Assembly: GCA_018823705.1 (NCBI GenBank) | Contig: JAHJHP010000031.1 | Coordinates: 1,982 to 65,981 of the forward strand | Source: Candidatus Omnitrophota bacterium | Lineage (GTDB): Bacteria > Omnitrophota > Gorgyraeia > 2-01-FULL-45-10 | DNA length: 64,000 nucleotides | Direction: 5' to 3' | Shown: positions 21,584 through 52,678 of the stretch, in pieces | Position numbering within the stretch: position 1 is the stretch's first letter | Layout of the letters: the number at the start of each line of letters is the position of its first letter | Position numbers and translations under genes: made by a program | The notes under the pieces: model-generated | What the model was told of the DNA's origin: nothing | Databases searched by the model: none | What the model saw: the letters and a program-made list of their open reading frames with translations, nothing else

Positions 21584-23089
21584 ATGATCCTGAAGCCGAC
21601 ATCTGAAGATTACAAGGTCATAGGCTATTATCTGGGAAAGATAATCATAGGCCTGGGATTATTGATGATGATCCCCCTCGTCATAGCCGCAGCTTATTCG
21701 GAGCTCGAACCCGTCGTAGACTATCTTTTGAGCATATCGGTTGCGCTATTTTTGGGAGTATTGCTTACCGGAGCTTGCCATACGAATAAGGATATCGCCG
21801 CAGGAAATGCCATGTGTATTGCAGCTCTCTCGTGGCTCGTCGCGATGGTCATATCCGCGATCCCTCTTTACCTTAGCGGCCATTACGCCTCGTATCTTGA
21901 CGCATGTTTTGAGACGATGAGCGGTTTCGCCACGACGGGGCTCTCTTTGACCAACGATATGGACAGTATGGCCCATGCTCACATTTTTTGGCGCCATTTT
22001 ACAATGTTCATCGGAGGACAGGGTATAGTGGTGATAGCCCTTACCTTCCTCTTTAGGGGCACTGCCGGAGCATTCAGGATATATATCGGCGAAGCGCGCG
22101 ACGAGAAGATATTACCGAACGTCATACACACGGCGCGTTTTATATGGCTCGTTAGCATCGTATATATGGTGCTTGGCACAATAGCTCTTTCGGCCTCCGC
22201 CATTATTGGAGGGCTATCTCCCGGCAAAGCCATATTCGATTCAGTCTGTATATTCATGGCGGCCTGGGATACCGGGGGTTTCACTCCACAGTCGCAAAGT
22301 ATACTTTTTTACCATAATCTTTCCTTTGAAATTATAACGGTAGTCATAATGCTGCTCGGTTCAATGAACTTTGCGCTTCATTACGTCGTATGGACGGGCA
22401 ATAGGAGAGAGTTGTATAAAAATATAGAGGTAATCACGCTCTTTATAAGCGTCGTTGTGACACTGTCCATAACCGCAGTGGGATTTTTCGGCCACGATAT
22501 TTACGGCGGTGCGGCGGCGTTCTTCAGGAAGGTCTTTTATCAGCTCATATCAGGCCATACAGGGACGGGCTATTCTACGATATACCCCGGGCAATTCGTA
22601 AATGAATGGGGGCCTCTGGCTATGCTGGGAGTGACTATAGCGATGGCGATAGGCGGATGCATGTGTTCGACCACAGGCGCCATTAAAGTCCTGCGGCTCG
22701 GGATACTATACAAAGCTTTACGGCAGGATATAAAGAAGGTACTGCTCCCCGAAAGCGCCGTAGTCGTGCAGAAATTTCATCACATAAAAGACGTTATTCT
22801 CGAGAATAAGCATGTCAGGATGTCGGCTATCATTCTGCTCTCTTACCTGGGGCTTTATATGCTGGGTACCGTGGTAGCGATGTTATGCGGTTATTCCTTA
22901 AGCGAAGCCGCGTTCGAATCAGTATCGGCTGCCGCCAACGTCGGATTATCCTGTGGTATAACCAAGCCGTCAATGCCGTTGGTTCTCAAGATTACGTATA
23001 TGTTCCAGATGTGGGCGGGAAGACTCGAATTCATCGCGATATTTGCCCTTGGCGGCATGATCGTCGCGGCGTTGAAAGGCAAGAGATGA
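21584..23089 (+). CDS. trkH: TrkH/KtrB family potassium transporter
   Basis: 501 aa polytopic protein with repeated MPM pore-loop motifs (TMSGFATTG, GGCMCSTTGAIKVLR). Confidence 0.85.
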   Translation: MILKPTSEDYKVIGYYLGKIIIGLGLLMMIPLVIAAAYSELEPVVDYLLSISVALFLGVLLTGACHTNKDIAAGNAMCIAALSWLVAMVISAIPLYLSGHYASYLDACFETMSGFATTGLSLTNDMDSMAHAHIFWRHFTMFIGGQGIVVIALTFLFRGTAGAFRIYIGEARDEKILPNVIHTARFIWLVSIVYMVLGTIALSASAIIGGLSPGKAIFDSVCIFMAAWDTGGFTPQSQSILFYHNLSFEIITVVIMLLGSMNFALHYVVWTGNRRELYKNIEVITLFISVVVTLSITAVGFFGHDIYGGAAAFFRKVFYQLISGHTGTGYSTIYPGQFVNEWGPLAMLGVTIAMAIGGCMCSTTGAIKVLRLGILYKALRQDIKKVLLPESAVVVQKFHHIKDVILENKHVRMSAIILLSYLGLYMLGTVVAMLCGYSLSEAAFESVSAAANVGLSCGITKPSMPLVLKITYMFQMWAGRLEFIAIFALGGMIVAALKGKR

Positions 23090-23571
23090 AGAATCTGTAT
23101 GTCCTGATCATCGCGCTCGTTATGATAGCGTTGCCGCGCCCGGATGTCTACGCGGAAGTGAAGCCTATTACCAGTATAGAGCTTATAAGAGACGCCAATA
23201 GTCTCGATGGTAGCGTTATTACGTATAAAGGAGAGATAGTAGCGGCCATTATGAAGCGGGGAGACCATTCCTGGGTGAATCTGAACGACGGTTATAAGGC
23301 CATCGGGGTATGGTGCAAAACAAGCTCTCTCAGCGACGTAAAGACGCTGGGTGATTATAAGAACGAAGGCGATATACTGGAAGTAACGGGCGTATTTCAC
23401 AGGGCCTGTCCGGAGCATGGCGGTGAATTGGATATACACGCCGAAGCCCTGAGAATAGAGGCCCTGGGGTTTCCTGTGGAAGAACGCGTCTCCATGCGGA
23501 GAGTCAATATCTCCATAGCGTTCTTTATAATGGCTCTCTTAGCCATATTCATGCTTAGAAAAAGGTTATAA
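23086..23571 (+). CDS. hypothetical secreted protein with C-terminal TM anchor
   Basis: ATG overlaps the trkH stop. Signal peptide at N-terminus and hydrophobic C-terminus. The track ORF 22885..23571 is an upstream in-frame extension. Confidence 0.45.
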   Translation: MKNLYVLIIALVMIALPRPDVYAEVKPITSIELIRDANSLDGSVITYKGEIVAAIMKRGDHSWVNLNDGYKAIGVWCKTSSLSDVKTLGDYKNEGDILEVTGVFHRACPEHGGELDIHAEALRIEALGFPVEERVSMRRVNISIAFFIMALLAIFMLRKRL

Positions 23572-37534: not shown

Positions 37535-37975
37535 ATGAGAGTAACGTATAGAGGAGATTACGCTTTAAAGGTGGTCTTGGCTTTGGCCCTGAACTATGGT
37601 AAAGACGTGGTAACGATCCACGAATTGGCCAAACGCATCGATGCTCCCATTAAGTTTTTGGAGCAAGTATTACTGGACCTGAAGAAGGGCGGTTTTGTGG
37701 AGTCCAGACGCGGCAAGATGGGTGGATATCGATTAGCCAGGCCGCCGGGCAATATAACGGTGGGCCAGGTAATAAGATTTATCGATGGCCCCACAGAGCC
37801 TATTTCTTGTGTAAGAAATGGGTATTCCAGTTGCGGTGACATGTATAAGTGTGTATTTAGAAAAGTGTGGCAGGATGTCGCGAAAACAACCTCAGATATC
37901 ATAGACAATGTAACTTTTGAGGCGCTGGCTTTCGAGGCTGATTCAGAACAAGAGGTACTTGTTTATTCGATTTAA
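37535..37975 (+). CDS. Rrf2 family transcriptional regulator (IscR/CymR-like, three-Cys cluster ligand motif)
   Basis: N-terminal wHTH (MRVTYRGDYALKVVLALAL...). C-x7-C-x5-C (SCVRNGYSSCGDMYKC). Confidence 0.85.
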   Translation: MRVTYRGDYALKVVLALALNYGKDVVTIHELAKRIDAPIKFLEQVLLDLKKGGFVESRRGKMGGYRLARPPGNITVGQVIRFIDGPTEPISCVRNGYSSCGDMYKCVFRKVWQDVAKTTSDIIDNVTFEALAFEADSEQEVLVYSI

Positions 37976-37994
37976 AAAAAAGGAGGAAGGGAAG

Positions 37995-38705
37995 ATGGGC
38001 GTTTTAAATGAGAAAGCGGATCTGAAAGAGTTGGTAGAGAAGTTGAATTTTAAGGAGAAAGTGGAGAGGTCAAAGGCGCTAATCGAGGAAGCATATAAAG
38101 TATACGGCGATGGACTTGTGGTGGCAAATAGCTTAGGGAAAGATTCGGTCGCGGTATGGGATCTCGCTAAAAGGGTAAATCCGAAAATACGCGGGTTTAT
38201 AGTGACGACCAGATATAAGCCGGTCGAGACTTTAAAATTCATGAAGGAGACCGTGAATAGGTATCCGGAGCTCAAAGTCTATAAGAATGATTCGGAGATA
38301 CCGGAACGGTTGTATGAAACAAAGCCGGACCTATGCTGCGATATATTAAAGGTTGAGCCTGTGAAGCGCGCCATAGAAGAGATGGGCGTTACATGCTGGG
38401 TGACGGGCTTGCGCTGCACCGAAGGCAGGACGCGCACCGACTTTCAGGAAGTAGAAGAGCGGGATAAGGGGCTGATAAAGCTTAACCCCATACTTATATG
38501 GAAAGAGCGCGAAGTTTGGCAATATCTGGCGCTATACGGGGTCCCTGTGAACCCTCTGTATGCGGAAGGCTATAGATCGCTCGGGTGCGCGCCGTGCTCA
38601 AAGATCACCAATGACGATAATGAGCGGGCCGGCCGCTGGATAGGAACGAGTAAATGCGGCGGCGAATGCGGTATACACACAAGGCCATTGAAGGGTAATA
38701 AATGA
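37995..38705 (+). CDS. cysH: phosphoadenosine/adenosine phosphosulfate reductase (PAPS/APS reductase family)
   Basis: PP-loop SLGKDS. Conserved C-terminal Cys residues (ECGIH tail). RBS aaggagg then ATG at 37995. Confidence 0.8.
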   Translation: MGVLNEKADLKELVEKLNFKEKVERSKALIEEAYKVYGDGLVVANSLGKDSVAVWDLAKRVNPKIRGFIVTTRYKPVETLKFMKETVNRYPELKVYKNDSEIPERLYETKPDLCCDILKVEPVKRAIEEMGVTCWVTGLRCTEGRTRTDFQEVEERDKGLIKLNPILIWKEREVWQYLALYGVPVNPLYAEGYRSLGCAPCSKITNDDNERAGRWIGTSKCGGECGIHTRPLKGNK

Positions 38706-39673
38706 TAATAGCGGTCACGATACTGGTTTCAGTATTTCTCGCGATGAACATGGGTATAAGTGGTTTCTCTGTGTCATTCGCGCCTTCCTTTGGAAGCAAT
38801 GTCCTGAGAAAAAACAAGGCGGCGCTACTCTATGGCCTTTGCGTAATAGCGGGAGCCTGCCTGATTGGCCCGAGAGTCGTAGAAACTCTGGTGCGGAAAA
38901 TATCCTACGCGCCATTAAACGTTGTTTCAAGCGGGATAATACTCATCTCGTGCGCTATAACCATGTTCTTAAGCAATGTTTTAAAGGTGCCGCAATCTAC
39001 GAGTTTCGTGACCGTCGCAAGCTTCGTGGGGTCGGGTCTATTTTACGGCAAGGTCAACTGGTATACGGTAGAAAAGATCCTGGTATTCGCAGTCATCTTT
39101 TCTATCGCATCCTTTGGCCTTACCGTTATAATTAAGCGTAGAATCTATCCGCCCCGTCAAGATAACCTGGGATTTTATGAGAAATTTTTTGTACACAGGG
39201 ATAAATTCAAGAAATTCATAATTTTCCACGATATGTATGCCGGTTTTAGCGTTGGTACGAATAATGTGGCCAATATCGTAGCTCCTTTAGTAGTCGCGTT
39301 AGGTATGGGAAATCTTTTCTGGTTCCTGGTGATCAGCCCGCTCTTTGGTTTAGGGGCATATTTTTGGGGAGAAAGAATGATACGTTCGGTATCTCGGGAC
39401 ATCGTACCTGTAGGAGAATTCTCCGCCAGCATAGTATCTTTTATCACAGCCACTTTTGTGCTTATCGCGTCTTTTTTAGGGCTGCCGACACCTTACGTTC
39501 AGTTTACGACATTTTCTCTATTGGGGATAAGCTGTGTAAAGGATGGGTTTAAAAAGACTTCAGAAAAATTGATTGTAAAAAAGATGCTGTGTGTCTGGAT
39601 ACTGGTCCCTCTCTTTACGGTCTTACTTAGTTTTAGTTTGCATCTTATCTGTATAAAATATCTACATCTATAA
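38702..39673 (+). CDS. PiT (inorganic phosphate transporter) family anion permease, putative sulfate permease (CysP-like)
   Basis: Polytopic protein with FSVGTNNVANIVAPL, a PiT-family signature-like motif. Embedded between cysH and cysK, as with B. subtilis CysP. Confidence 0.55.
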   Translation: MIIAVTILVSVFLAMNMGISGFSVSFAPSFGSNVLRKNKAALLYGLCVIAGACLIGPRVVETLVRKISYAPLNVVSSGIILISCAITMFLSNVLKVPQSTSFVTVASFVGSGLFYGKVNWYTVEKILVFAVIFSIASFGLTVIIKRRIYPPRQDNLGFYEKFFVHRDKFKKFIIFHDMYAGFSVGTNNVANIVAPLVVALGMGNLFWFLVISPLFGLGAYFWGERMIRSVSRDIVPVGEFSASIVSFITATFVLIASFLGLPTPYVQFTTFSLLGISCVKDGFKKTSEKLIVKKMLCVWILVPLFTVLLSFSLHLICIKYLHL

Positions 39674-39687
39674 TAGGAGAATGCGCT

Positions 39688-40623
39688 ATGCGTGAAGATT
39701 CGGAGATCACAAAAAATATTCTCGAAGTTATAGGGAGAACCCCCCTGATAAGGCTTAATCGTATCGCCGGCCGGGGTATGGCAGAAATACTTGCTAAAGT
39801 TGAATCGCTGAATCCGGGCGGCAGTGTTAAGGATAGAATAGCTCTTGCCATGATCGAGGACGCTCAAGCGAAGGGAGAGCTTAAGCCCGATTCGACTATT
39901 ATAGAACCTACCAGCGGGAATACAGGGATCGGCCTGGCAATGGTCTGCGCGGTCAAGGGCTACCGATGCATACTTACTATGCCTGAGACGATGAGCCTGG
40001 AGAGAATATATATCCTGAAAGCTTATGGCGCGGAAGTGGTTCTTACTCCCGGTTCTCAGGGCATGAAAGGGGCTATAAAGAAGGCGGAGGAGATCCAGGC
40101 AAAGACAGCAAATTCATTCATGCCTCACCAGTTTGAACATCCGGCAAATCCGAAAGTTCATAGAGAGACTACGGCTAGAGAGATACTTTCACAGACGGGC
40201 GGCAGGCTCGATGCTTTTGTCGCCGGGGTTGGTACCGGTGGAACCATAACGGGAGTCGGCGAGATATTGAAGAAGCATGATGCCCGAATAAGAATTATTG
40301 CCGTAGAGCCTGAAACGAGCGCCGTCCTATCAGGTAAAAAACACGGGACTCATAAGATACAGGGTATAGGAGCCGGATTTATACCCGATATTTTGAATAG
40401 GAACGTTATAGATGAGATTATAACCGTAAGCGACCGGGATGCGTATGAAGCAGCAAAGCTATTGGCTGTGAAGGAAGGCATATTCTGCGGCCCGTCTTCA
40501 GGCGCGGCTTTTGTAGCTGCGCTAAAGATTGCGAAGACATTGGGGGCCGGTAAGAGAGTCATAACGGTATTTCCGGATACAGGCGAAAGATATTTTTCAA
40601 TGAACCAATACTTTGAATTCTAA
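39688..40623 (+). CDS. cysK: cysteine synthase A (O-acetylserine sulfhydrylase)
   Basis: PLP lysine in SVKDR. TSGNTGIGLA. GTGGT loop. Confidence 0.9.
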   Translation: MREDSEITKNILEVIGRTPLIRLNRIAGRGMAEILAKVESLNPGGSVKDRIALAMIEDAQAKGELKPDSTIIEPTSGNTGIGLAMVCAVKGYRCILTMPETMSLERIYILKAYGAEVVLTPGSQGMKGAIKKAEEIQAKTANSFMPHQFEHPANPKVHRETTAREILSQTGGRLDAFVAGVGTGGTITGVGEILKKHDARIRIIAVEPETSAVLSGKKHGTHKIQGIGAGFIPDILNRNVIDEIITVSDRDAYEAAKLLAVKEGIFCGPSSGAAFVAALKIAKTLGAGKRVITVFPDTGERYFSMNQYFEF

Positions 40624-40638: not shown

Positions 40639-41118
40639 ATGAAAGAGTTATATTATCCGATAGCGTTAAAGCTTAAAGGCAAAACCGCCCTGGTTGTCGG
40701 AGGCGGACAGGTCGCTGAGCGCAAAGTAAAGACCCTGCTTCGTTTTGGCGCGCGGGTCCGTCTTGTGTCGCCTGATTTAACAACAGCATTAAGAAGACTT
40801 TTTAAATCCCGCAAGATCGCCTGGCACAAGAGAGCTATAAGATCTTCGGACGTCGAAGGCGCGGATCTTATCATAGCAGCCACTTCTATCGCGGCCGTCA
40901 ATAAGAAGGTAAGTAAATGGGCGAAAAGAGAAGGAACTCCGGTAAATATTGTAGATAGAGCGGATTTAAGCAGTTTTATTTCGCCGGCAATTCTGCATAC
41001 ATCCAGGGCCGTTGTAGCCGTATATACGCACGGCCGGAACCCTGCTTTAAGCAGGGATCTGAAGAACTTTCTGAAGGAGAATTGGGATGTATTTTTATCT
41101 TATAGGGGTAGATTATAA
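40639..41118 (+). CDS. precorrin-2 dehydrogenase / sirohydrochlorin ferrochelatase (siroheme synthase N-terminal domain type, SirC/CysG-N)
   Basis: LKGKTALVVGGGQVAERKVKTLL NAD-binding motif typical of the CysG N-terminal domain. 159 aa. Confidence 0.75.
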   Translation: MKELYYPIALKLKGKTALVVGGGQVAERKVKTLLRFGARVRLVSPDLTTALRRLFKSRKIAWHKRAIRSSDVEGADLIIAATSIAAVNKKVSKWAKREGTPVNIVDRADLSSFISPAILHTSRAVVAVYTHGRNPALSRDLKNFLKENWDVFLSYRGRL

Positions 41119-42070
41119 AAGTTCGACGATCGATACGCGCGAAAAGCTCTACCGTAATAGAAAGGCCATCTCCGGTTTCTGCGCAAGCCATCTCCCCCAT
41201 GAAGCAGCTCTCCTTACGACTTGTAACCGCATAGAGATCTATGGCCTTACAAAATACGCTGACGATGCGCTTGGGCATATCGCCGCTTTTTCCGAACGTC
41301 TCCCTGAATTTTCAAAGTACGCGTATGTGAAATACGGAGAAGCGGAAGTGTTTCATCATGCGCTCAGGCTGGGCGTCGGACTCGAGTCGCAGCTTAAGGG
41401 AGAGCCGCAGATATTGGCGCAGCTCGAGGCGTGGAGTTCAGGCGACAGAGTGCCGCTTCCTATTAAGGTTTTATGGGATAGGGCTATTACATTAGCGCGA
41501 AAAATACGAGTTGCGTCGAAGCTAAACGAGGATAATGATAATATAGCTACTATCGTGCTTGAAGATATAAGGAGACGTCTGGGTGGGCGCAGAAAGTATG
41601 AAATCGTAATTGTAGGGACAGGCAAGATCGCCGAACTTTTCTCAGGATCCCGGCCGATTGGCGCGCATCTTCTTTTCGCGGCCCATAAGAATTATCAAAA
41701 AGCACAAATGCTGGCAATGAATTCAGGCGGAGACGCGCTGTTTTTAAAGGATCTGCCTGGCATCATAGCCAGGACGGATGCATTGATATGCGCGACATCG
41801 AGCCCGCATCATGTTATTGAAAAGGATATCTTTAACAATCTGGCCGTTGGTCGTGAGTATCCGCTATATATTTATGATCTTGCGATTCCGAGGGATGTGG
41901 AGCCGACCTCAGGACGCGTAAATGGCATATTTTTGAATAATCTCGACAGTTTGAGATATCTATTTTACAGATATAACAAGTCGAAACAGGAGCGCATAGA
42001 GCTGGCATCCGATCTGATAGGCGATGTGTTAAAAATTCATCAGGAGCTCGCTCATGGCAAAGACCATTAA
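41087..42070 (+). CDS. hemA: glutamyl-tRNA reductase (short form, 327 aa)
   Basis: Catalytic Cys in LTTCNRIEIY. NADPH domain IVIVGTGKIAE. Confidence 0.8.
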   Translation: MYFYLIGVDYKSSTIDTREKLYRNRKAISGFCASHLPHEAALLTTCNRIEIYGLTKYADDALGHIAAFSERLPEFSKYAYVKYGEAEVFHHALRLGVGLESQLKGEPQILAQLEAWSSGDRVPLPIKVLWDRAITLARKIRVASKLNEDNDNIATIVLEDIRRRLGGRRKYEIVIVGTGKIAELFSGSRPIGAHLLFAAHKNYQKAQMLAMNSGGDALFLKDLPGIIARTDALICATSSPHHVIEKDIFNNLAVGREYPLYIYDLAIPRDVEPTSGRVNGIFLNNLDSLRYLFYRYNKSKQERIELASDLIGDVLKIHQELAHGKDH

Positions 42071-42707
42071 AGTCGGGACGCGGCCGAGCGCTCTTGCGCT
42101 AAAGCAGGTTGAAGAAGTGCGCAAGCGCTTGCCGCAGTATCACATAGAGACCGTTCTTATCGAAACTCGCGGCGACAAAGATAAGATCTCTTCTCTATCG
42201 GATAAAGAAAATAGCGACTTTTTTACACGCGAGATCGAGCAAGCTCTAATAGATGGGTCTATTGACGCGGCCATTCATAGCGCGAAGGACCTGGAAGATG
42301 TTATGTCGAGAGAATTGGTAATAGCGGCGATGACGTCTCCTATCAGCCCTTTCGAATGTTTGGTGTCTCGGGGAGGTTCGACGATGGAGAAGCTTCCTTT
42401 GGGCGCCTGCGTAGGCACTAGTAGCCGGAAGCGAAGAAGAGCGCTTATGAATTTCAGGCCGGACCTCGACGTAAAGGATATACGCGGCGATATTGATGAA
42501 AGACTGGCGCAGTTGAATAGCGGGAAGTTTGACGCTATTATCGTCGCGCATGCTGCCTTGATCAGATTGGGATATGAAGATAGGATCGCCGAGATCATTC
42601 CCAGAGAAATAATGGAGCCCCACCCTTTACAGGGAAGCCTCGCGGTCCAGATCCGTCGAGACAGGGATGACTTGTCGGCAATTTTTAGGAGCTTAGATGG
42701 AAAATAA
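42054..42707 (+). CDS. hemC: hydroxymethylbilane synthase (porphobilinogen deaminase) lacking C-terminal domain 3
   Basis: Domains 1-2 align to HemC (VGTRPSALALKQV, GTSSRKR, DAIIVAHAALIRLG). The ORF ends at 217 aa, where the cofactor-Cys domain would begin. Confidence 0.7.
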   Translation: MAKTIKVGTRPSALALKQVEEVRKRLPQYHIETVLIETRGDKDKISSLSDKENSDFFTREIEQALIDGSIDAAIHSAKDLEDVMSRELVIAAMTSPISPFECLVSRGGSTMEKLPLGACVGTSSRKRRRALMNFRPDLDVKDIRGDIDERLAQLNSGKFDAIIVAHAALIRLGYEDRIAEIIPREIMEPHPLQGSLAVQIRRDRDDLSAIFRSLDGK

Positions 42708-43416
42708 GAAGGGTAAAGTTTATATAGTAGGAGCCGGCCCGGGCGACCCGGAACTTATAAGCGTGAAAGGGCTGAAGGCACTCAAAAAAGCGGATTGCGT
42801 ATTGTATGATTTTTTGTCTTCCCCGGCGCTATTAAAATATGTTAAAACGGGCGCTAAAAAGATATGCGTAGGCAAAGCGAATGGCCTGCATCTTAAGGAA
42901 CAGGGTGATATAAATGAGTTACTTTACAAATATTCTCAGGTTTATAGATATGTCGTGCGCCTCAAAGGCGGCGATCCGTTTGTATTCAGCCGCGGTTTTG
43001 AAGAGGCGCGGTACTTGGCCGAGAAGAGAGTAAAATGTGAGGTGATCCCGGGAATAACGTCGGCCATCGCGGGCCCGGAAAGTTTCGGAATTCCGCTCAC
43101 GATAAAAAATAAGATACAATCCTTTGCGGTGTTGACCGGACGCAAAGAGAATCCAAATGCCGAAATCGATGCGCCCGATTGCCGGACGCTCGTGTATGTG
43201 ATGGGTGTAGCCAATATAAAGAATATAGTGAAGGCATTACGGAAGAGAGGCCGTCCCGATAAGACTCCGTGCGCATTCATAGAACGAGCGACCACCAGGA
43301 AGGCGAGGATCGTGACAGCCACGATAAAGACTATAGCGAGAGAGGTTGTGAGGCAAAAAGTGAAGCCTCCCGCTATTTTGATTGTAGGTGAGGTCGTAAA
43401 GTATGCTAAAAAATAA
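42697..43416 (+). CDS. cobA: uroporphyrinogen-III C-methyltransferase (SUMT)
   Basis: VYIVGAGPGDPELISVKG SAM-MT motif. 239 aa. Confidence 0.9.
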   Translation: MENKKGKVYIVGAGPGDPELISVKGLKALKKADCVLYDFLSSPALLKYVKTGAKKICVGKANGLHLKEQGDINELLYKYSQVYRYVVRLKGGDPFVFSRGFEEARYLAEKRVKCEVIPGITSAIAGPESFGIPLTIKNKIQSFAVLTGRKENPNAEIDAPDCRTLVYVMGVANIKNIVKALRKRGRPDKTPCAFIERATTRKARIVTATIKTIAREVVRQKVKPPAILIVGEVVKYAKK

Positions 43417-44335
43417 AAAGACTACCATCAGCGTAAAGGATCTGGTCTACCCTTTATTTGTAAGAGAGGGAATAGGTATATGCGAGGAGATACCTTCCAT
43501 GCCCGGTATTTACAGGTTCCCTCTTGACGCTATTGCCAGGGAAACCCGGGCTCTGGTGAAGTTGGGGATAGGGGCTGTTTTACTCTTCGGTGTGCCGACC
43601 GGGAAAAGCCGGGAAGGCTCAGAAGCATATAAAAAAGATAATGTAGCCGCCAAAGCCGTAACAAAACTTAAGCGAAAGTTTCCGGATCTTACCGTTATGA
43701 CCGATGTGTGTCTGTGTGCGTATACATCGCATGGGCATTGCGGCGTTATTCTGCCGGGATGCAGGACTATAGCTCATAAAACGACGCTTGATGCGCTCTG
43801 CAGGATGGCGTTATCCCACGCCGAAGCCGGCGCGGATTATGTGGCGCCTTCGGCTATGGCAAAAGGGCAGGTATGGGCTATAAGAAGAGCATTGGATGCC
43901 CACGGTTTTAAGGATACCGGGATAATGGGGTATTCAGCGAAGTACGCTTCAAATTTCTACGGCCCATTCAGGGATGCGGCTAATTCATCTCCGTTATTTG
44001 GGGACAGAAGCGCGTATCAACTCGGATTTTCTAACAGCGCGTCGGCTATGAAAGAGATAGCGGCTGATATAAGAGAAGGCGCAGACATAGTAATGGTCAA
44101 GCCGGCATTGGCATATCTGGATATAATCAGGGAGGCCGCGAACCGCTTCCGGGCGCCGCTTGCAGCCTATAACGTGAGCGGCGAATACGCCATGGTCAAA
44201 CATGGCGCAAAGCTGGGTTTGTGGAATGAAAAGAAGGTTGTGCTCGAGATCATTACTTCGATTAAACGTGCGGGGGCGGATCTGGTCATTACATATCATG
44301 CTAAGGACATTGCGAAATGGCTAAAAGAACGATAA
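43403..44335 (+). CDS. hemB: porphobilinogen synthase (ALA dehydratase), Zn/Cys-rich type
   Basis: DVCLCAYTSHGHCG metal site. Active-site Lys region. Confidence 0.9.
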   Translation: MLKNKKTTISVKDLVYPLFVREGIGICEEIPSMPGIYRFPLDAIARETRALVKLGIGAVLLFGVPTGKSREGSEAYKKDNVAAKAVTKLKRKFPDLTVMTDVCLCAYTSHGHCGVILPGCRTIAHKTTLDALCRMALSHAEAGADYVAPSAMAKGQVWAIRRALDAHGFKDTGIMGYSAKYASNFYGPFRDAANSSPLFGDRSAYQLGFSNSASAMKEIAADIREGADIVMVKPALAYLDIIREAANRFRAPLAAYNVSGEYAMVKHGAKLGLWNEKKVVLEIITSIKRAGADLVITYHAKDIAKWLKER

Positions 44336-45567
44336 ATTCTAAATTATTCTCTGAGGCGCAAAAATATCTGGTGGGCGGCGTCAATAGCCCCGTGCGGGCT
44401 TTTAATTATGTAGGCGGTGACCCTCTTATAATTAAGAGAGGCCATGGCTCAAAAGTCTATGACCACGATGGTAATGAGTATATCGATTATGTGCTTTCAT
44501 GGGGAAGCCTCATTCTTGGCCATGCGTTTCCCGATGTTGTGAATGCGGTCAAGGCCGCGGCTTGCGACGGTTTGAGTTTCGGCACGACAAATATAAAGGA
44601 AGTGGAGCTGGCAAAGTTGATCCATAAGGCGATACCGTTTGTAGAAAAGATAAGGTTTGTCAATTCAGGCACAGAAGCTGTTATGAGCGCGGTGAGGCTT
44701 GCCAGAGGGCATACCGGCAGGGACAAGATCGTGAAGTTTGAGAACTCTTATCACGGACACGCCGATTATCTCCTAGTCTCAGGAGGCTCGGGACTCGCAA
44801 CCCTAAATATTCCGCAAAGCCCCGGTGTCCCCCGAAGTTTCATCAAAGACACAATGGTCCTTCCTTACGGCGATTTCCGAAAACTGGAAGAGGCATTTGA
44901 ACTGCACGGAAGAGAGATAGCTGCTGTGCTGGTGGAGCCCGTGGGAGGCAATTATGGTGTCATGCCCCCCGATACAGGTTTTTTGCGGCATCTAAGGAAG
45001 ATCACTGATCGATACTCCGCGCTTCTGATCGCCGATGAAGTGATCACCGGATTTCGTTTCTCATTCGGTTCTTTTATGCATAGGTCGGGCGTATTGCCCG
45101 ATCTTATATGCCTCGGGAAGATCATAGGCGGAGGGTTACCTATAGGAGCTTACGGCGGTGGCGGTAAGATAATGAATAAACTCGCTCCGCTCGGAAAAGT
45201 CTATCAGGCATCAACATTTTCCGGGAATCCGGTCGTTATGCAGGCAGGCATATCCACACTTAAAGTGTTAGCGTTATCCGGGGGAAGATATAGGCAGATT
45301 GAAAGATTCGCGGAACTTTTAAGCAGCGCTATTGAAAGAGCCGCGAGGTCATGTAATATCGATTTAAAAGTGAGCAGATTTGGCTCCATGTTCAGCCTGA
45401 AGTTTGAGAGAAAGGATGATTTTAAGAAGTTCTACAGAGGGTTGCTCCGGAGCGGAGTCTATTTTGCGCCTTCGGAATTTGAATCGAATTTTGTGTCATT
45501 TGCGCACACAAAAAAAGATATTGATGATACAATAAATTTGATAAGAGTTATTTTGGCGAAGATATAA
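44317..45567 (+). CDS. hemL: glutamate-1-semialdehyde 2,1-aminomutase
   Basis: Class III aminotransferase fold. Length and motifs (VNSGTEAVM, GKIIGGGLP) typical of HemL. Confidence 0.9.
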   Translation: MAKRTINSKLFSEAQKYLVGGVNSPVRAFNYVGGDPLIIKRGHGSKVYDHDGNEYIDYVLSWGSLILGHAFPDVVNAVKAAACDGLSFGTTNIKEVELAKLIHKAIPFVEKIRFVNSGTEAVMSAVRLARGHTGRDKIVKFENSYHGHADYLLVSGGSGLATLNIPQSPGVPRSFIKDTMVLPYGDFRKLEEAFELHGREIAAVLVEPVGGNYGVMPPDTGFLRHLRKITDRYSALLIADEVITGFRFSFGSFMHRSGVLPDLICLGKIIGGGLPIGAYGGGGKIMNKLAPLGKVYQASTFSGNPVVMQAGISTLKVLALSGGRYRQIERFAELLSSAIERAARSCNIDLKVSRFGSMFSLKFERKDDFKKFYRGLLRSGVYFAPSEFESNFVSFAHTKKDIDDTINLIRVILAKI

Positions 45568-45583
45568 AATAAGCGGAGGATAA

Positions 45584-46291
45584 ATGGAAAATATCGATTA
45601 TGAAGATTTAAAGAAACGGGGATTCTTAAGACAAGCCCAGGAAGGTTTTTTTGTATTAAGGACGAGAATGCCGGGTGGCAACTATAAGAGAGAAGACCTC
45701 GAAAAACTGGCCGTGATAGCGCAAAAGTATGCCAAAGGATTTGTCCATGCCACTGTCCGTCAGGGGCTGGAGATCCCTTTTATAAGATTTGAAAATATTC
45801 CTGAGGTCGAATCCGAGGTAAAAAAAACCGGTATTCTGATAGGTGCGTCCGGTCCGCGGCTCAGGACGACCGTTGCCTGCCCCGGCAACAACTGGTGCAA
45901 ACGAGGCCTCGTAAATACATTTTCTCTTGCCGATAGAATAGAAAAAGAGCCGGGGCTAAAATGCGGGTTAGACCTGCCGCACAAATTTAAGATAGCTATC
46001 TCCGGATGCCCCAACGCCTGTACGCGGCCTCAAGTCTCCGAGATAGGCATGCACGGTCAAGCCGATAGTCTGACGAAAGCGGCCGGCTATACCGTATATA
46101 TAGGAGGTTGCGGAGGCAGAATATCAAAGTCGGGTATAAAGCTCGAAAAAGTTTATACGGAAGATGAAGTTATGCGTCTGGTAGAGAAAGTGGTAAAATT
46201 TTATAAAGATCATGCTAAGCCCCGACAGCGGCTCGGCGCATTGATCGATGAATTCGGAATAGACAATTTTTATAAAACATGTTCGTGTTGA
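45584..46291 (+). CDS. small siroheme-[4Fe-4S] sulfite/nitrite reductase hemoprotein (low-molecular-weight assimilatory-type sulfite reductase-like)
   Basis: C-x5-C ... C-x3-C siroheme/Fe-S ligand pattern (CPGNNWC ... CPNAC) in a ~235-aa single-module protein. Confidence 0.6.
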   Translation: MENIDYEDLKKRGFLRQAQEGFFVLRTRMPGGNYKREDLEKLAVIAQKYAKGFVHATVRQGLEIPFIRFENIPEVESEVKKTGILIGASGPRLRTTVACPGNNWCKRGLVNTFSLADRIEKEPGLKCGLDLPHKFKIAISGCPNACTRPQVSEIGMHGQADSLTKAAGYTVYIGGCGGRISKSGIKLEKVYTEDEVMRLVEKVVKFYKDHAKPRQRLGALIDEFGIDNFYKTCSC

Positions 46292-50191: not shown

Positions 50192-50425
50192 ATGAAAATC
50201 GAAATTTTAGGAGTAGGATGTCCCAAGTGCAAACAACTTACTGCCAATGCAGAAGCGGCAGTAAGGGAGCTTAATATAGCCGCTGAAGTTTCCAAGGTGA
50301 CGGATATTGGAAAAATAACCGAATATGGCGTGATGATGACTCCTGCGCTTGCCCTTGATGGCACGATAGTTTCATTCGGCAAGGTATTAAGCAAGGATGA
50401 GATTAAGAAGATTATTTCAAAATAG
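50192..50425 (+). CDS. small thioredoxin-fold protein (redox-active disulfide protein 2-like)
   Basis: 77 aa. N-terminal CPKC redox motif in MKIEILGVGCPKC. Confidence 0.7.
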   Translation: MKIEILGVGCPKCKQLTANAEAAVRELNIAAEVSKVTDIGKITEYGVMMTPALALDGTIVSFGKVLSKDEIKKIISK

Positions 50426-50435
50426 GGAGGAAAGA

Positions 50436-50873
50436 TTGAAGAAACTATTTTTTATTCTTCTGGCAATTACTGCGCTAAGTAGTAGTGGAATAATTATTGC
50501 GCCGCCAGCTCAAGCAGGAGAGGACGCAAAAGGCGCTCATGTCGTCGCTTATTATTTTCACGGGACAATGCGCTGCTCTACCTGCCATAAACTGGAACAG
50601 TATTCAAAGGAAGCGATAGAGACTAATTTTAAAGATGCGCTTCAATCCGGAAAGCTGGAATATAAAGTTGTAAATGTGGAAGATAAAGGCAACGAACACT
50701 TTTGCGATGACTATCAACTTTATACGAAATCACTCATCCTGTCTTTAATCGAAGACGGTAAAGAAATAAAATGGAAAAATCTTGATAAAATATGGGAATA
50801 CGTCGGTAATAAACAGAAGTTTCTTGATTATGTTAAGGCGGGAGTCACCGATTTTCTGAAGGACGCTCAATGA
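50436..50873 (+). CDS. secreted CxxC protein (possible periplasmic thiol-disulfide oxidoreductase)
   Basis: Signal peptide KKLFFILLAITALSS. CSTCH motif. TTG start after RBS gggagg. The track ORF extends upstream in-frame across the previous gene's end. Confidence 0.4.
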   Translation: MKKLFFILLAITALSSSGIIIAPPAQAGEDAKGAHVVAYYFHGTMRCSTCHKLEQYSKEAIETNFKDALQSGKLEYKVVNVEDKGNEHFCDDYQLYTKSLILSLIEDGKEIKWKNLDKIWEYVGNKQKFLDYVKAGVTDFLKDAQ

Positions 50874-51829: not shown

Positions 51830-52678
51830 ATGAGTCTATATTTTATTTTTACCGTGGACGGCGATTGGAACGAGTATTTTTCCACCAAATTGTCAAAGAA
51901 AGAAAGAAAACCTGACAGGAAAGGCTTACTTGGTTTGATTAAGCGTGAGATCGCAATTGCCCGTTCTATTGGCGGCAAAATTCTGCATTTTGTGCACACA
52001 TCACCCGTCACCCGGCAATATTACCTACAGCCAGAATTTATCCGCCTCTGGAAGAAGATAGAGGCATCCGGGGGGAGCATAGGGGTCCACTGTCACGAGG
52101 AAGGTCTTTTTAGCCGCGGCAGGCTTAACGATTCGGGCATGCTGGAGCAGTCGGTCCGCTCATTAACTGAGCCATTACGCAAAGAGGGGCTGACCCTCAT
52201 TTCTTATCGCGGCGGTTATCTTACTTTTTGTAAAAAAGTCATACCAATCTTAGAAAGAAACGAGCTTTTCCTTGATTTTTCTTGCGACCCGGGTCGTTAT
52301 CTTCATCACAAAAGAAGGCTGATCGCGGATTGGCGAGGGGCGCCGAAGAATTATTATCGCATGTGTTATCAAGATCACCGCGCAGAAGGTAAAAGTAATG
52401 TTATTGAAATACCCCTTGGAAAAATAAGGCAACGCGCTTTATATATAGACATTACATCTCTGCCGGATATCTGGAAGGTAACGCGGCGTTTGGCTAAAAA
52501 GGATAAATCATCAAAGGGCAACATAATTGTATCCCTCTTGACGCACACGTATGAGTTTTCTTCTGCATGGAAACGGGTTAAAATAAAAGCGGCCCTCCTT
52601 GTCTGCAGATTGTACGGTAGTTTTATTAATGATAAAGAAGCGTTAGAGATTATCGCAAAGGAGAAAGGAAAAACATGA
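51830..52678 (+). CDS. hypothetical protein, possibly divergent polysaccharide-deacetylase (CE4)-like fold
   Basis: Weak CE4-like motif order (FTVDGDW; HFVHTSP; YRGGY; LTHTY). AT-richer codon usage than neighbouring genes. Confidence 0.3.
   Translation: MSLYFIFTVDGDWNEYFSTKLSKKERKPDRKGLLGLIKREIAIARSIGGKILHFVHTSPVTRQYYLQPEFIRLWKKIEASGGSIGVHCHEEGLFSRGRLNDSGMLEQSVRSLTEPLRKEGLTLISYRGGYLTFCKKVIPILERNELFLDFSCDPGRYLHHKRRLIADWRGAPKNYYRMCYQDHRAEGKSNVIEIPLGKIRQRALYIDITSLPDIWKVTRRLAKKDKSSKGNIIVSLLTHTYEFSSAWKRVKIKAALLVCRLYGSFINDKEALEIIAKEKGKT

Follow-up and report, generated by a model that had tools for sequence, protein, structure and literature searches.

The hemC gene at positions 42054-42707 (+ strand, as for all features below) of a 64,000-nucleotide stretch of a Candidatus Omnitrophota genome (contig JAHJHP010000031.1 of assembly GCA_018823705.1; the whole stretch is hereafter called the window) encodes a hydroxymethylbilane synthase of 217 amino acids (aa) that consists of domains 1 and 2 only. 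Textbooks and reviews, those of 2020 and 2026 included, describe this enzyme, known as HemC, HmbS or porphobilinogen deaminase (PBGD), as a protein of ~35 kDa with a dipyrromethane cofactor on a conserved Cys (PMC7242693, PMC13564367), and crystallographic papers report three domains with the cofactor Cys in domain 3 (PMC7959689, PMC3949521). We think it fairly likely that the window gene is complete and functional and codes for an enzyme that naturally has two domains and anchors its primer in a non-canonical manner. Judging from sequence conservation and genomic context, its product is most likely an active porphobilinogen polymerase that feeds siroheme synthesis for an adjacent small sulfite reductase.

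Domain content and predicted structure

The open reading frame (ORF) of hemC runs from an ATG to a TAA at 42705-42707. Pfam recognizes PF01379 at residues 5-207 of the product (E 2e-61) and does not find PF03900, the domain 3 family. Against the hemC profile TIGR00212 the product reaches 210 bits, where 164 is the cut-off, and the match spans positions 1-215 of 293. The closest PDB sequence is the PBGD of B. megaterium (312 aa), with residues 4-214 of the query lying on residues 5-220 of the chain. In our alignment (A1), the C-terminal K217 lies opposite H222 of the E. coli enzyme, with which domain 3 starts, and E. coli C242, the invariant Cys that carries the cofactor (PMC7242693), has no aligned residue. 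A preliminary description of this DNA had read the ORF as domains 1 and 2 ending at about residue 217, where domain 3 begins, with the cofactor-Cys domain absent, and both statements hold.

An AlphaFold2 model of the 217-aa protein (predicted local distance difference test 93.6, predicted TM-score 0.88) leads to the same view. By Foldseek it matches all 32 solved PBGD chains over ~216-223 columns, in domains 1 and 2 only, and every solved PBGD has three domains. The TM-score is 0.83-0.92 when normalized by query length and 0.55-0.67 when normalized by target length; the root-mean-square deviation (rmsd) is 1.8 A over 216 columns against 1pda and ~1.6-2.5 A against bacterial and plant entries. 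This comparison of a predicted model with PDB structures had been proposed beforehand as a check on the missing domain, and superposition is indeed confined to domains 1 and 2. The window gene is HemC by the fold of these two domains and by family profile, and domain 3 is missing from it.

A widespread two-domain subfamily

The truncated architecture is far from private to this genome. An exhaustive HMMER search was run against 1.84 billion representatives, and domain 3 proved to be absent from 96 of the best 150, which were the ones examined. Source names among the two-domain representatives include Omnitrophota, Elusimicrobiota and Spirochaetes. Pfam scans of ten representatives revealed several in-frame architectures, namely SirC-HemA-HemC (~690 aa), HemA-HemC, HemC-HemD (463 aa) and HemC-CobA-HemD (~650-690 aa), and members also occur as stand-alone two-domain HemC. 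A further search seeded with one such protein, P0256, added 120 two-domain proteins, here termed the Chlamydiae-type set, with names such as Estrella lausannensis, Parachlamydia sp., Waddliaceae, Parachlamydiaceae, Chlamydiia and Verrucomicrobiota.

Four positions co-vary with the absence of domain 3: E21, D55, a residue other than Arg at 96, and an acidic residue at 149, corresponding to E. coli Y22, G60, R101 and T154. With E21, D55, P96 and E149, the window HemC scores 4/4. Glu21 (codon 42114-42116) is found in 89-100% of each two-domain group, while Leu (18%) and His (16%) are commonest at this position in domain-3-containing sequences and Glu is outside the top two. Asp55 (codon 42216-42218), which corresponds to a lid-loop residue just ahead of E. 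coli Phe62, occupies its position in 92-97% of the two-domain groups versus Gly in 86% of domain-3-containing sequences. At the position of Glu149 (codon 42498-42500; its E. coli counterpart adjoins Arg155), an acidic residue has a frequency of 75-94% across the Omnitrophota and fusion groups and of 62% in the Chlamydiae type, the remainder of which mostly have Gln; 98% of domain-3-containing sequences have Thr here. These subfamily-specific residues cluster near the substrate site.

Signature scores of 3-4 are reached by 118 of 120 Omnitrophota sequences and 85 of the 96 two-domain representatives, and all 54 domain-3-containing representatives score 0-1. An independent sample of modules, drawn from a metagenome scan with a HemD alignment as query, gave scores of at least 3 for two-domain modules (51/51) and of at most 2 for three-domain ones (3/3). 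A neighbor-joining tree built without the signature columns, whose internal branches are short and carry no bootstrap support, parts all 54 domain-3-containing from 104 two-domain sequences by a single split. Six short representatives (P0203, P0210, P0231, P0234, P0241 and P0250) give no domain-3 hit but were rejected as two-domain members: they have the canonical signature, group with the three-domain enzymes in the tree, and are probably fragments or carriers of a divergent domain 3.

One of the four positions has a known role. Human R116 forms a salt bridge to Glu250 of domain 3 (PMC10577081), and the two-domain subfamily as a whole has lost the Arg at this position (E. coli R101), which fits an enzyme that no longer docks domain 3. 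Judged by sequence, two-domain HemC is a coherent, widespread subfamily that lacks the whole of domain 3.

Conservation of the active site

The residues that bind the substrate or pyrrole rings c1 and c2 have been tabulated (Table 2 of PMC7959689), and their counterparts are kept in the window HemC: R10, S12, Q18, F57, S76, K78, D79, T122, S123, S124, K126, R127, R144, G145, R150, A165, R171, Q193 and G194. Among them, D79 is the catalytic Asp (E. coli D84), and residue 126 is Lys here and Arg in E. coli. The only cofactor contacts missing are those given by domain 3. In the Chlamydiae-type set (n=120) the same substrate and pyrrole positions are 95-100% conserved, with Arg at 126 as in canonical enzymes.

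A further peculiarity lies in the second hinge strand (H190-P-L-Q, 42621-42632), which reads PHPLQG where canonical enzymes have PAVGQG. His190 is invariant among 30 aligned members of the clade, and 78% of HemC-CobA-HemD fusions have it too. A universal role for this His (motif HPLQG) in catalysis or anchoring was discarded, since the X-HemC fusions (HemA-HemC and SirC-HemA-HemC) and the Chlamydiae branch lack it.

Proposed priming without the canonical cysteine

In the reading that we favor, the primer would not sit on the canonical domain-3 thioether. The starter pyrrole or pyrroles would instead be held non-covalently or through some other linkage, in which the acidic E21, D55 and E149 close to the substrate site may take part. 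In the window's clade, a thioether to Cys102 may come in addition or as a replacement. Where canonical enzymes have domain 3 to shut the back of the cleft, that side would either stay open or be covered by a partner enzyme, so that the growing chain could be passed on directly. Indeed, the habitual fusion or coupling of the module with HemD, CobA or HemA suggests that such a partner takes over from domain 3 in closing the cleft, and that the product goes to it. The window HemC probably converts four porphobilinogen into hydroxymethylbilane, as the conserved active site, the operon and the fusions suggest.

The distribution of cysteines bears directly on this. Cys102 (codon TGT, 42357-42359; E. 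coli Ala107) is the only conserved Cys, and in Omnitrophota orthologues position 102 is Cys in 116/120 and Ser in the other four. Two of the sequences with Ser, P0075 and P0100, belong to the window's clade and contain no cysteine at all; P0184 and P0256 are likewise cysteine-free. Cys102 recurs in 83% of the X-HemC fusions, and Cys167 (E. coli A172) in 75-95% of the HemC-CobA-HemD fusions (19/20 by count). Both are absent from all 13 HemC-HemD fusions. The Chlamydiae type has Ser, Ala or Val at 102 in 113/120, no conserved Cys, and no cysteine whatsoever in 15/120. As whole branches lack a conserved Cys and a thioether is impossible in cysteine-free members, the subfamily does not appear to depend on a Cys-linked dipyrromethane, nor can a thioether be its general solution. 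Given activity, the chances are roughly even that priming in the two-domain subfamily is independent of a Cys thioether. A more specific scheme, in which there is no covalent dipyrromethane, a non-covalent or carboxylate-linked starter is used, the bilane leaves through the open cleft back to the adjoining enzyme, and the clade makes uroporphyrinogen III without a recognizable HemD, is conceivable but rather doubtful.

The main alternative is that the cofactor is an ordinary covalent dipyrromethane whose thioether has moved to the domain-2 edge of the cleft, via Cys102 or, in other branches, Cys167. Residues 102 and 167 can be placed at that edge since they adjoin published cofactor contacts. 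Human D121 salt-bridges the cofactor-binding R149/R150 (PMC10577081), and its counterpart E101 directly precedes Cys102; the c2 acetate is bound by the backbone NH of the residue equivalent to A165 (PMC7959689), and residue 167 is two positions past it. The near-invariance of Cys102 with both TGT and TGC codons, the recurrence of the two cysteines in the fusions, and the fact that all four exceptions at 102 are Ser, also a nucleophile, speak for such a relocation. Against it, 102, like 167, is a small-residue packing position, with Val or Ala in canonical enzymes and Ser, Ala or Val in most Chlamydiae-type proteins, and Cys occurs there in 4/50 domain-3-containing sequences as well. Ser is moreover the sole small residue one mutation from Cys, so packing alone could explain the Cys/Ser pattern, and cysteine-free orthologues exist inside the window's clade itself. 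Finally, a Cys in a beta-strand would be unable to slide backwards during elongation like the domain-3 loop (PMC7959689).

The residues in other branches, the three-domain enzymes with Cys and the cysteine-free members led us to discard Cys102 as a subfamily-wide relocated anchor, and relocation as an explanation for the subfamily seems to us unlikely overall, if clearly the best of the alternatives. Within the window's clade, Cys102 remains a fair candidate anchor on sequence grounds, and a Cys102-anchored cofactor there is perhaps slightly easier to entertain, though still doubtful. The preliminary description had raised a domain-3-less HemC-like protein with altered function, for example with the cofactor attached to a different residue; the domain-3-less HemC stands, but a relocated Cys does not hold as a general rule, Cys102 reaching 116/120 only in this clade.

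A siroheme operon without HemD

The window operon has the order Thi4, Rrf2, cysH, PHO4/PiT permease, cysK, sirC, hemA, hemC, cobA, hemB, hemL, NIR_SIR, feoAB, and its steps from Glu-tRNA to sirohydrochlorin are complete (hemA, hemL, hemB, hemC, cobA, sirC) except for HemD. The lack of hemD, which had been noticed from the sequence beforehand as apparent, extends to five independent operons of the clade. CobA is 239-247 aa and without a HemD module in the window and in the syntenic loci L001, L002, L091 and L092, and the flanking +-10 kb contain no HemD at any of the clade's five independent loci. Pfam found neither HemD (PF02602) nor a domain-3 ORF among 20 further ORFs, and purpose-built hidden Markov models (HMMs) of domain 3 (from 50 sequences) and HemD (from 71 sequences) found nothing in the 64-kb window or in the 20-kb loci L001, L002, L003, L091 and L092, the best E-value of the domain-3 HMM over these six being 0.5. 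Nor is there a HemD in 4 kb of another assembly that reach beyond the window end through DnaJ.

Sister operons, by contrast, carry CobA-HemD at this very place. Another Omnitrophota genome (L006) has HemC-CobA-HemD at the same place in the operon, a 468-470-aa CobA-HemD follows SirC-HemA-HemC or HemA-HemC in L009 and L010, and a HemD module is fused to CobA at the same position in ~40 metagenome loci besides these three. In Parachlamydia and Estrella, a short hemD overlaps the end of the two-domain hemC. In one locus (L005, 5512-8981), genes for which no Pfam hit is recorded prove to be SirC-HemA and a HemC-CobA-HemD interrupted by runs of masked bases, and the blank annotation there is a data artefact.

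The missing HemD invites the idea that the function of HemC has changed, such that it does not release hydroxymethylbilane but makes uroporphyrinogen III itself or with CobA, or serves as a porphobilinogen-binding or scaffold subunit. Synthesis of uroporphyrinogen III by HemC itself or with CobA would explain why HemD is absent from all five independent clade operons of an otherwise complete pathway, and the subfamily-specific residues do lie near the substrate site. However, the polymerase site is fully conserved, and elsewhere the module almost always adjoins or is fused to HemD, which argues that the module itself is no substitute for it. A dual HmbS/UroS activity was once claimed for Plasmodium and later disproved (PMC8698207). 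We regard a changed function as improbable.

It is less probable still that domain 3 is supplied in trans, as had been considered in the preliminary description, by a separate small protein of the PF03900 fold that bears the cofactor Cys and docks onto the two-domain core. Split enzymes are common in streamlined genomes, and the searches covered the window and loci rather than whole genomes. Yet no domain-3-like ORF turned up in the window or the five 20-kb loci, where an otherwise complete and tightly coupled operon would be expected to hold such a subunit; the docking Arg (E. coli R101) is lost subfamily-wide; and the fusions run from domain 2 straight to HemD or CobA, so that in many relatives HemD or CobA-HemD takes the place after domain 2 in the chain.

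Integrity of hemC and its junction with cobA

The end of hemC has the form of a translational-coupling junction (42687-42707), in which an AGGAG at 42687-42691 and the cobA ATG at 42697-42699 precede the overlapping hemC TAA at 42705-42707. The preliminary description had cobA starting 10 nucleotides (nt) before the hemC stop; the overlap is confirmed, while the distance, counted from the cobA start at 42697 to the end of the stop, is 11 nt. As had been stated, there is no space at the junction for a frameshifted continuation, and the AGGAG, the ATG and the overlapping TAA are kept in L001 and L002. In L006, hemC and cobA are joined via a linker and the stop is absent. Four other assemblies or runs (GCA_018813565.1, GCA_018817565.1, ERZ27247128 and SRR10598178) contain the identical 217-aa product, overlapped by the same 239-aa cobA. 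The best 120 homologues listed share 58-81% identity, are 212-240 aa long (apart from two of 192 and 201 aa, probably partial), contain PF01379 only and are from Omnitrophota where named. Alignment A1 has 38 invariant columns, all catalytic residues among them, and the use of both TGT and TGC for residue 102 among loci indicates that the orthologues evolve independently.

Beyond the unexpected length nothing favors a stop created by sequencing or assembly error, or a truncated pseudogene with a non-functional step, and the identical product in other assemblies, the orthologues that end alike with the cobA junction kept, the invariant catalytic residues and the in-frame fusion of the module in other lineages effectively refute both. 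The suggestion that the pathway is non-functional at the hemC step likewise fails, since the catalytic and pyrrole-binding residues are kept across hundreds of diverged sequences and in in-frame fusions.

Points that weigh against a non-canonically primed, active enzyme

Several considerations count against the reading of the window gene as an active synthase with non-canonical priming. The activity of two-domain HemC is a prediction from sequence, model and context. An HmbS-UroS fusion from Leptospira is active (cited in PMC8698207), but it may or may not contain domain 3. The near-invariant Cys102, with its synonymous codon changes, would also fit an essential thioether anchor in this clade. 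As the searches covered single loci of these genomes, domain 3 might be encoded as a protein of its own at some other place, or there might be another HemC of the canonical kind. With HemD missing from the clade's operon, production of uroporphyrinogen III here is putative. The placement of residues 21, 55, 102 and 167 rests on alignment, secondary structure and published contacts, and the short internal branches of the tree, which carry no bootstrap support, count in the same direction.

Neighboring genes and operon context

The six tetrapyrrole genes (40639-45567) overlap successively by 32 nt (sirC/hemA), 17 nt (hemA/hemC), 11 nt (hemC/cobA), 14 nt (cobA/hemB) and 19 nt (hemB/hemL), and these start/stop overlaps suggest translational coupling of modules that other lineages make as single fusion proteins. 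The operon core (cysH to the small reductase) is kept in L001 (a 1.99-Mb contig), L002/L003, L091 and L092, and HemC identity among these loci is 60-69%.

The first of the six genes encodes a sirC/cysG-N-like precorrin-2 dehydrogenase of 159 aa (40639-41118; PF13241, TIGR01470 positions 1-138 of 205) which stops short of the C-terminal part found in CysG-N/Met8p-type enzymes; the operon shows no sign of a separate sirohydrochlorin ferrochelatase. The glutamyl-tRNA reductase HemA (41087-42070; PF05201, PF01488, TIGR01035 positions 3-327 of 416) is also short, at 327 aa, and has no C-terminal dimerization domain; a short form of 301-342 aa is kept in the syntenic loci, and in relatives the short HemA is fused directly to two-domain HemC. 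Downstream of hemC lie cobA, for a uroporphyrinogen-III C-methyltransferase of 239 aa lacking a HemD module (42697-43416; PF00590, TIGR01469), hemB, for porphobilinogen synthase (43403-44335; PF00490, E 7e-130), and hemL, for glutamate-1-semialdehyde aminomutase (44317-45567; PF00202), whose position is kept in all syntenic loci.

The genes follow a sulfur-assimilation part (37917-40623; PF01507, PF01384) made up of cysH, a reductase of 3'-phosphoadenosine-5'-phosphosulfate or adenosine-5'-phosphosulfate (APS), a PHO4/PiT-family permease and cysK, the last named via the PF00291 match of the syntenic genes in L001 and L092. Lying between cysH and cysK, the permease is probably a sulfate or sulfite carrier. 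Neither ATP sulfurylase nor APS kinase is present in the operon. Upstream of cysH, at 37535-37975, is an Rrf2-family regulator with three Cys, which likewise belongs to the conserved operon. At the other end, a small sulfite/nitrite reductase-like protein of 235 aa (45584-46291; PF03460, PF01077) is kept at the operon end in L001, L002, L091 and L092. With its single NIR_SIR_ferr plus NIR_SIR module it would be a siroheme-dependent sulfite reductase of small size, and likely the siroheme client of the operon; L005 and L009 have two-module versions of 502-742 aa. Farther away in the window, three ORFs (51830-52678, 22885-23571 and 50397-50873; 282, 228 and 158 aa) match nothing in Pfam at E <= 0.01. 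Across the 64 kb, real-looking ORFs of more than 150 aa are almost all on the + strand, and most minus-strand ORFs overlap larger plus-strand ones.

Significance

No description of a domain-3-less HmbS was found in full-text literature searches, the scope of which excluded subscription-only literature. Two-domain sequences as such are already known, since Chlamydiae genomes have long listed them under the name HemC and NCBIfam has a curated model; what seems not to have been described is the variant and what it implies for the mechanism. A large natural family thus keeps the polymerase cleft without the cofactor-Cys domain, and many of its members are without any Cys. Should these enzymes be active, several questions become testable: whether a covalent cofactor and domain 3 are needed for processive, length-controlled pyrrole polymerization, what determines chain length once the domain-3 cavity is gone, and whether fusion or coupling with HemD or CobA replaces the role of domain 3 by channeling an unstable product. 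As cultured Chlamydiae are among the members, the family is experimentally accessible. For annotation, it matters that two-domain proteins score above the HemC equivalog cut-off and receive the name of an ordinary HemC. A second puzzle, linked to the first, is posed by the siroheme operon of the Omnitrophota clade, which lacks HemD.

Comparison with known systems

Canonical three-domain enzymes (E. coli 1PDA, B. megaterium 4MLQ, human 3ECR/7CCX) share 31-35% identity with the window HemC. Common to both are domains 1 and 2 with their type-II periplasmic-binding-protein-like fold (bacterial and plant structures superpose at an rmsd of 1.6-2.5 A), D79, and the Arg, Ser, Lys and Gln residues that bind the substrate and pyrrole carboxylates, and the window protein passes the TIGR00212 cut-off. 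Unlike them, it lacks domain 3 (~90 residues, PF03900) together with the cofactor Cys and the Arg that bridges to domain 3. It also differs in having E21, D55 and E149 and, in the window's branch, H190-P-L in place of A-V-G ahead of Q-G.

A closer parallel is provided by the short HemC of Chlamydiota (NF002202 / PRK01066, a 241-position model), exemplified by Estrella lausannensis and Parachlamydia sp. AcF125 and annotated as HemC in public genomes. PRK01066 was, we presume, built on Chlamydia sequences. The Chlamydiota proteins (201-262 aa) likewise have two domains with PF01379 only; E21 and D55 are present, the Arg is lost and the active site is kept. The window HemC scores 163 bits, below the NF002202 cut-off of 251, and so belongs to a different branch; the related two-domain P0256 scores 232 bits. 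Unlike the window HemC, the Chlamydiae type has neither a conserved Cys nor H190, and its hemC is followed by an overlapping short hemD, whereas the window hemC is followed by cobA with no hemD nearby.

The third comparison is with the fusions of early tetrapyrrole enzymes (HemC-HemD, HemC-CobA-HemD, HemA-HemC and SirC-HemA-HemC). CobA/HemD fusions and the HmbS-UroS fusion of Leptospira are known from the literature (Leptospira: PMC8698207). In the window, unlike in the fusions, the modules are separate ORFs with overlaps of 11-32 nt and the HemD module is absent. The fusions share with the window the same two-domain module, the same signature and the gene order sirC-hemA-hemC-cobA(-hemD)-hemB-hemL.

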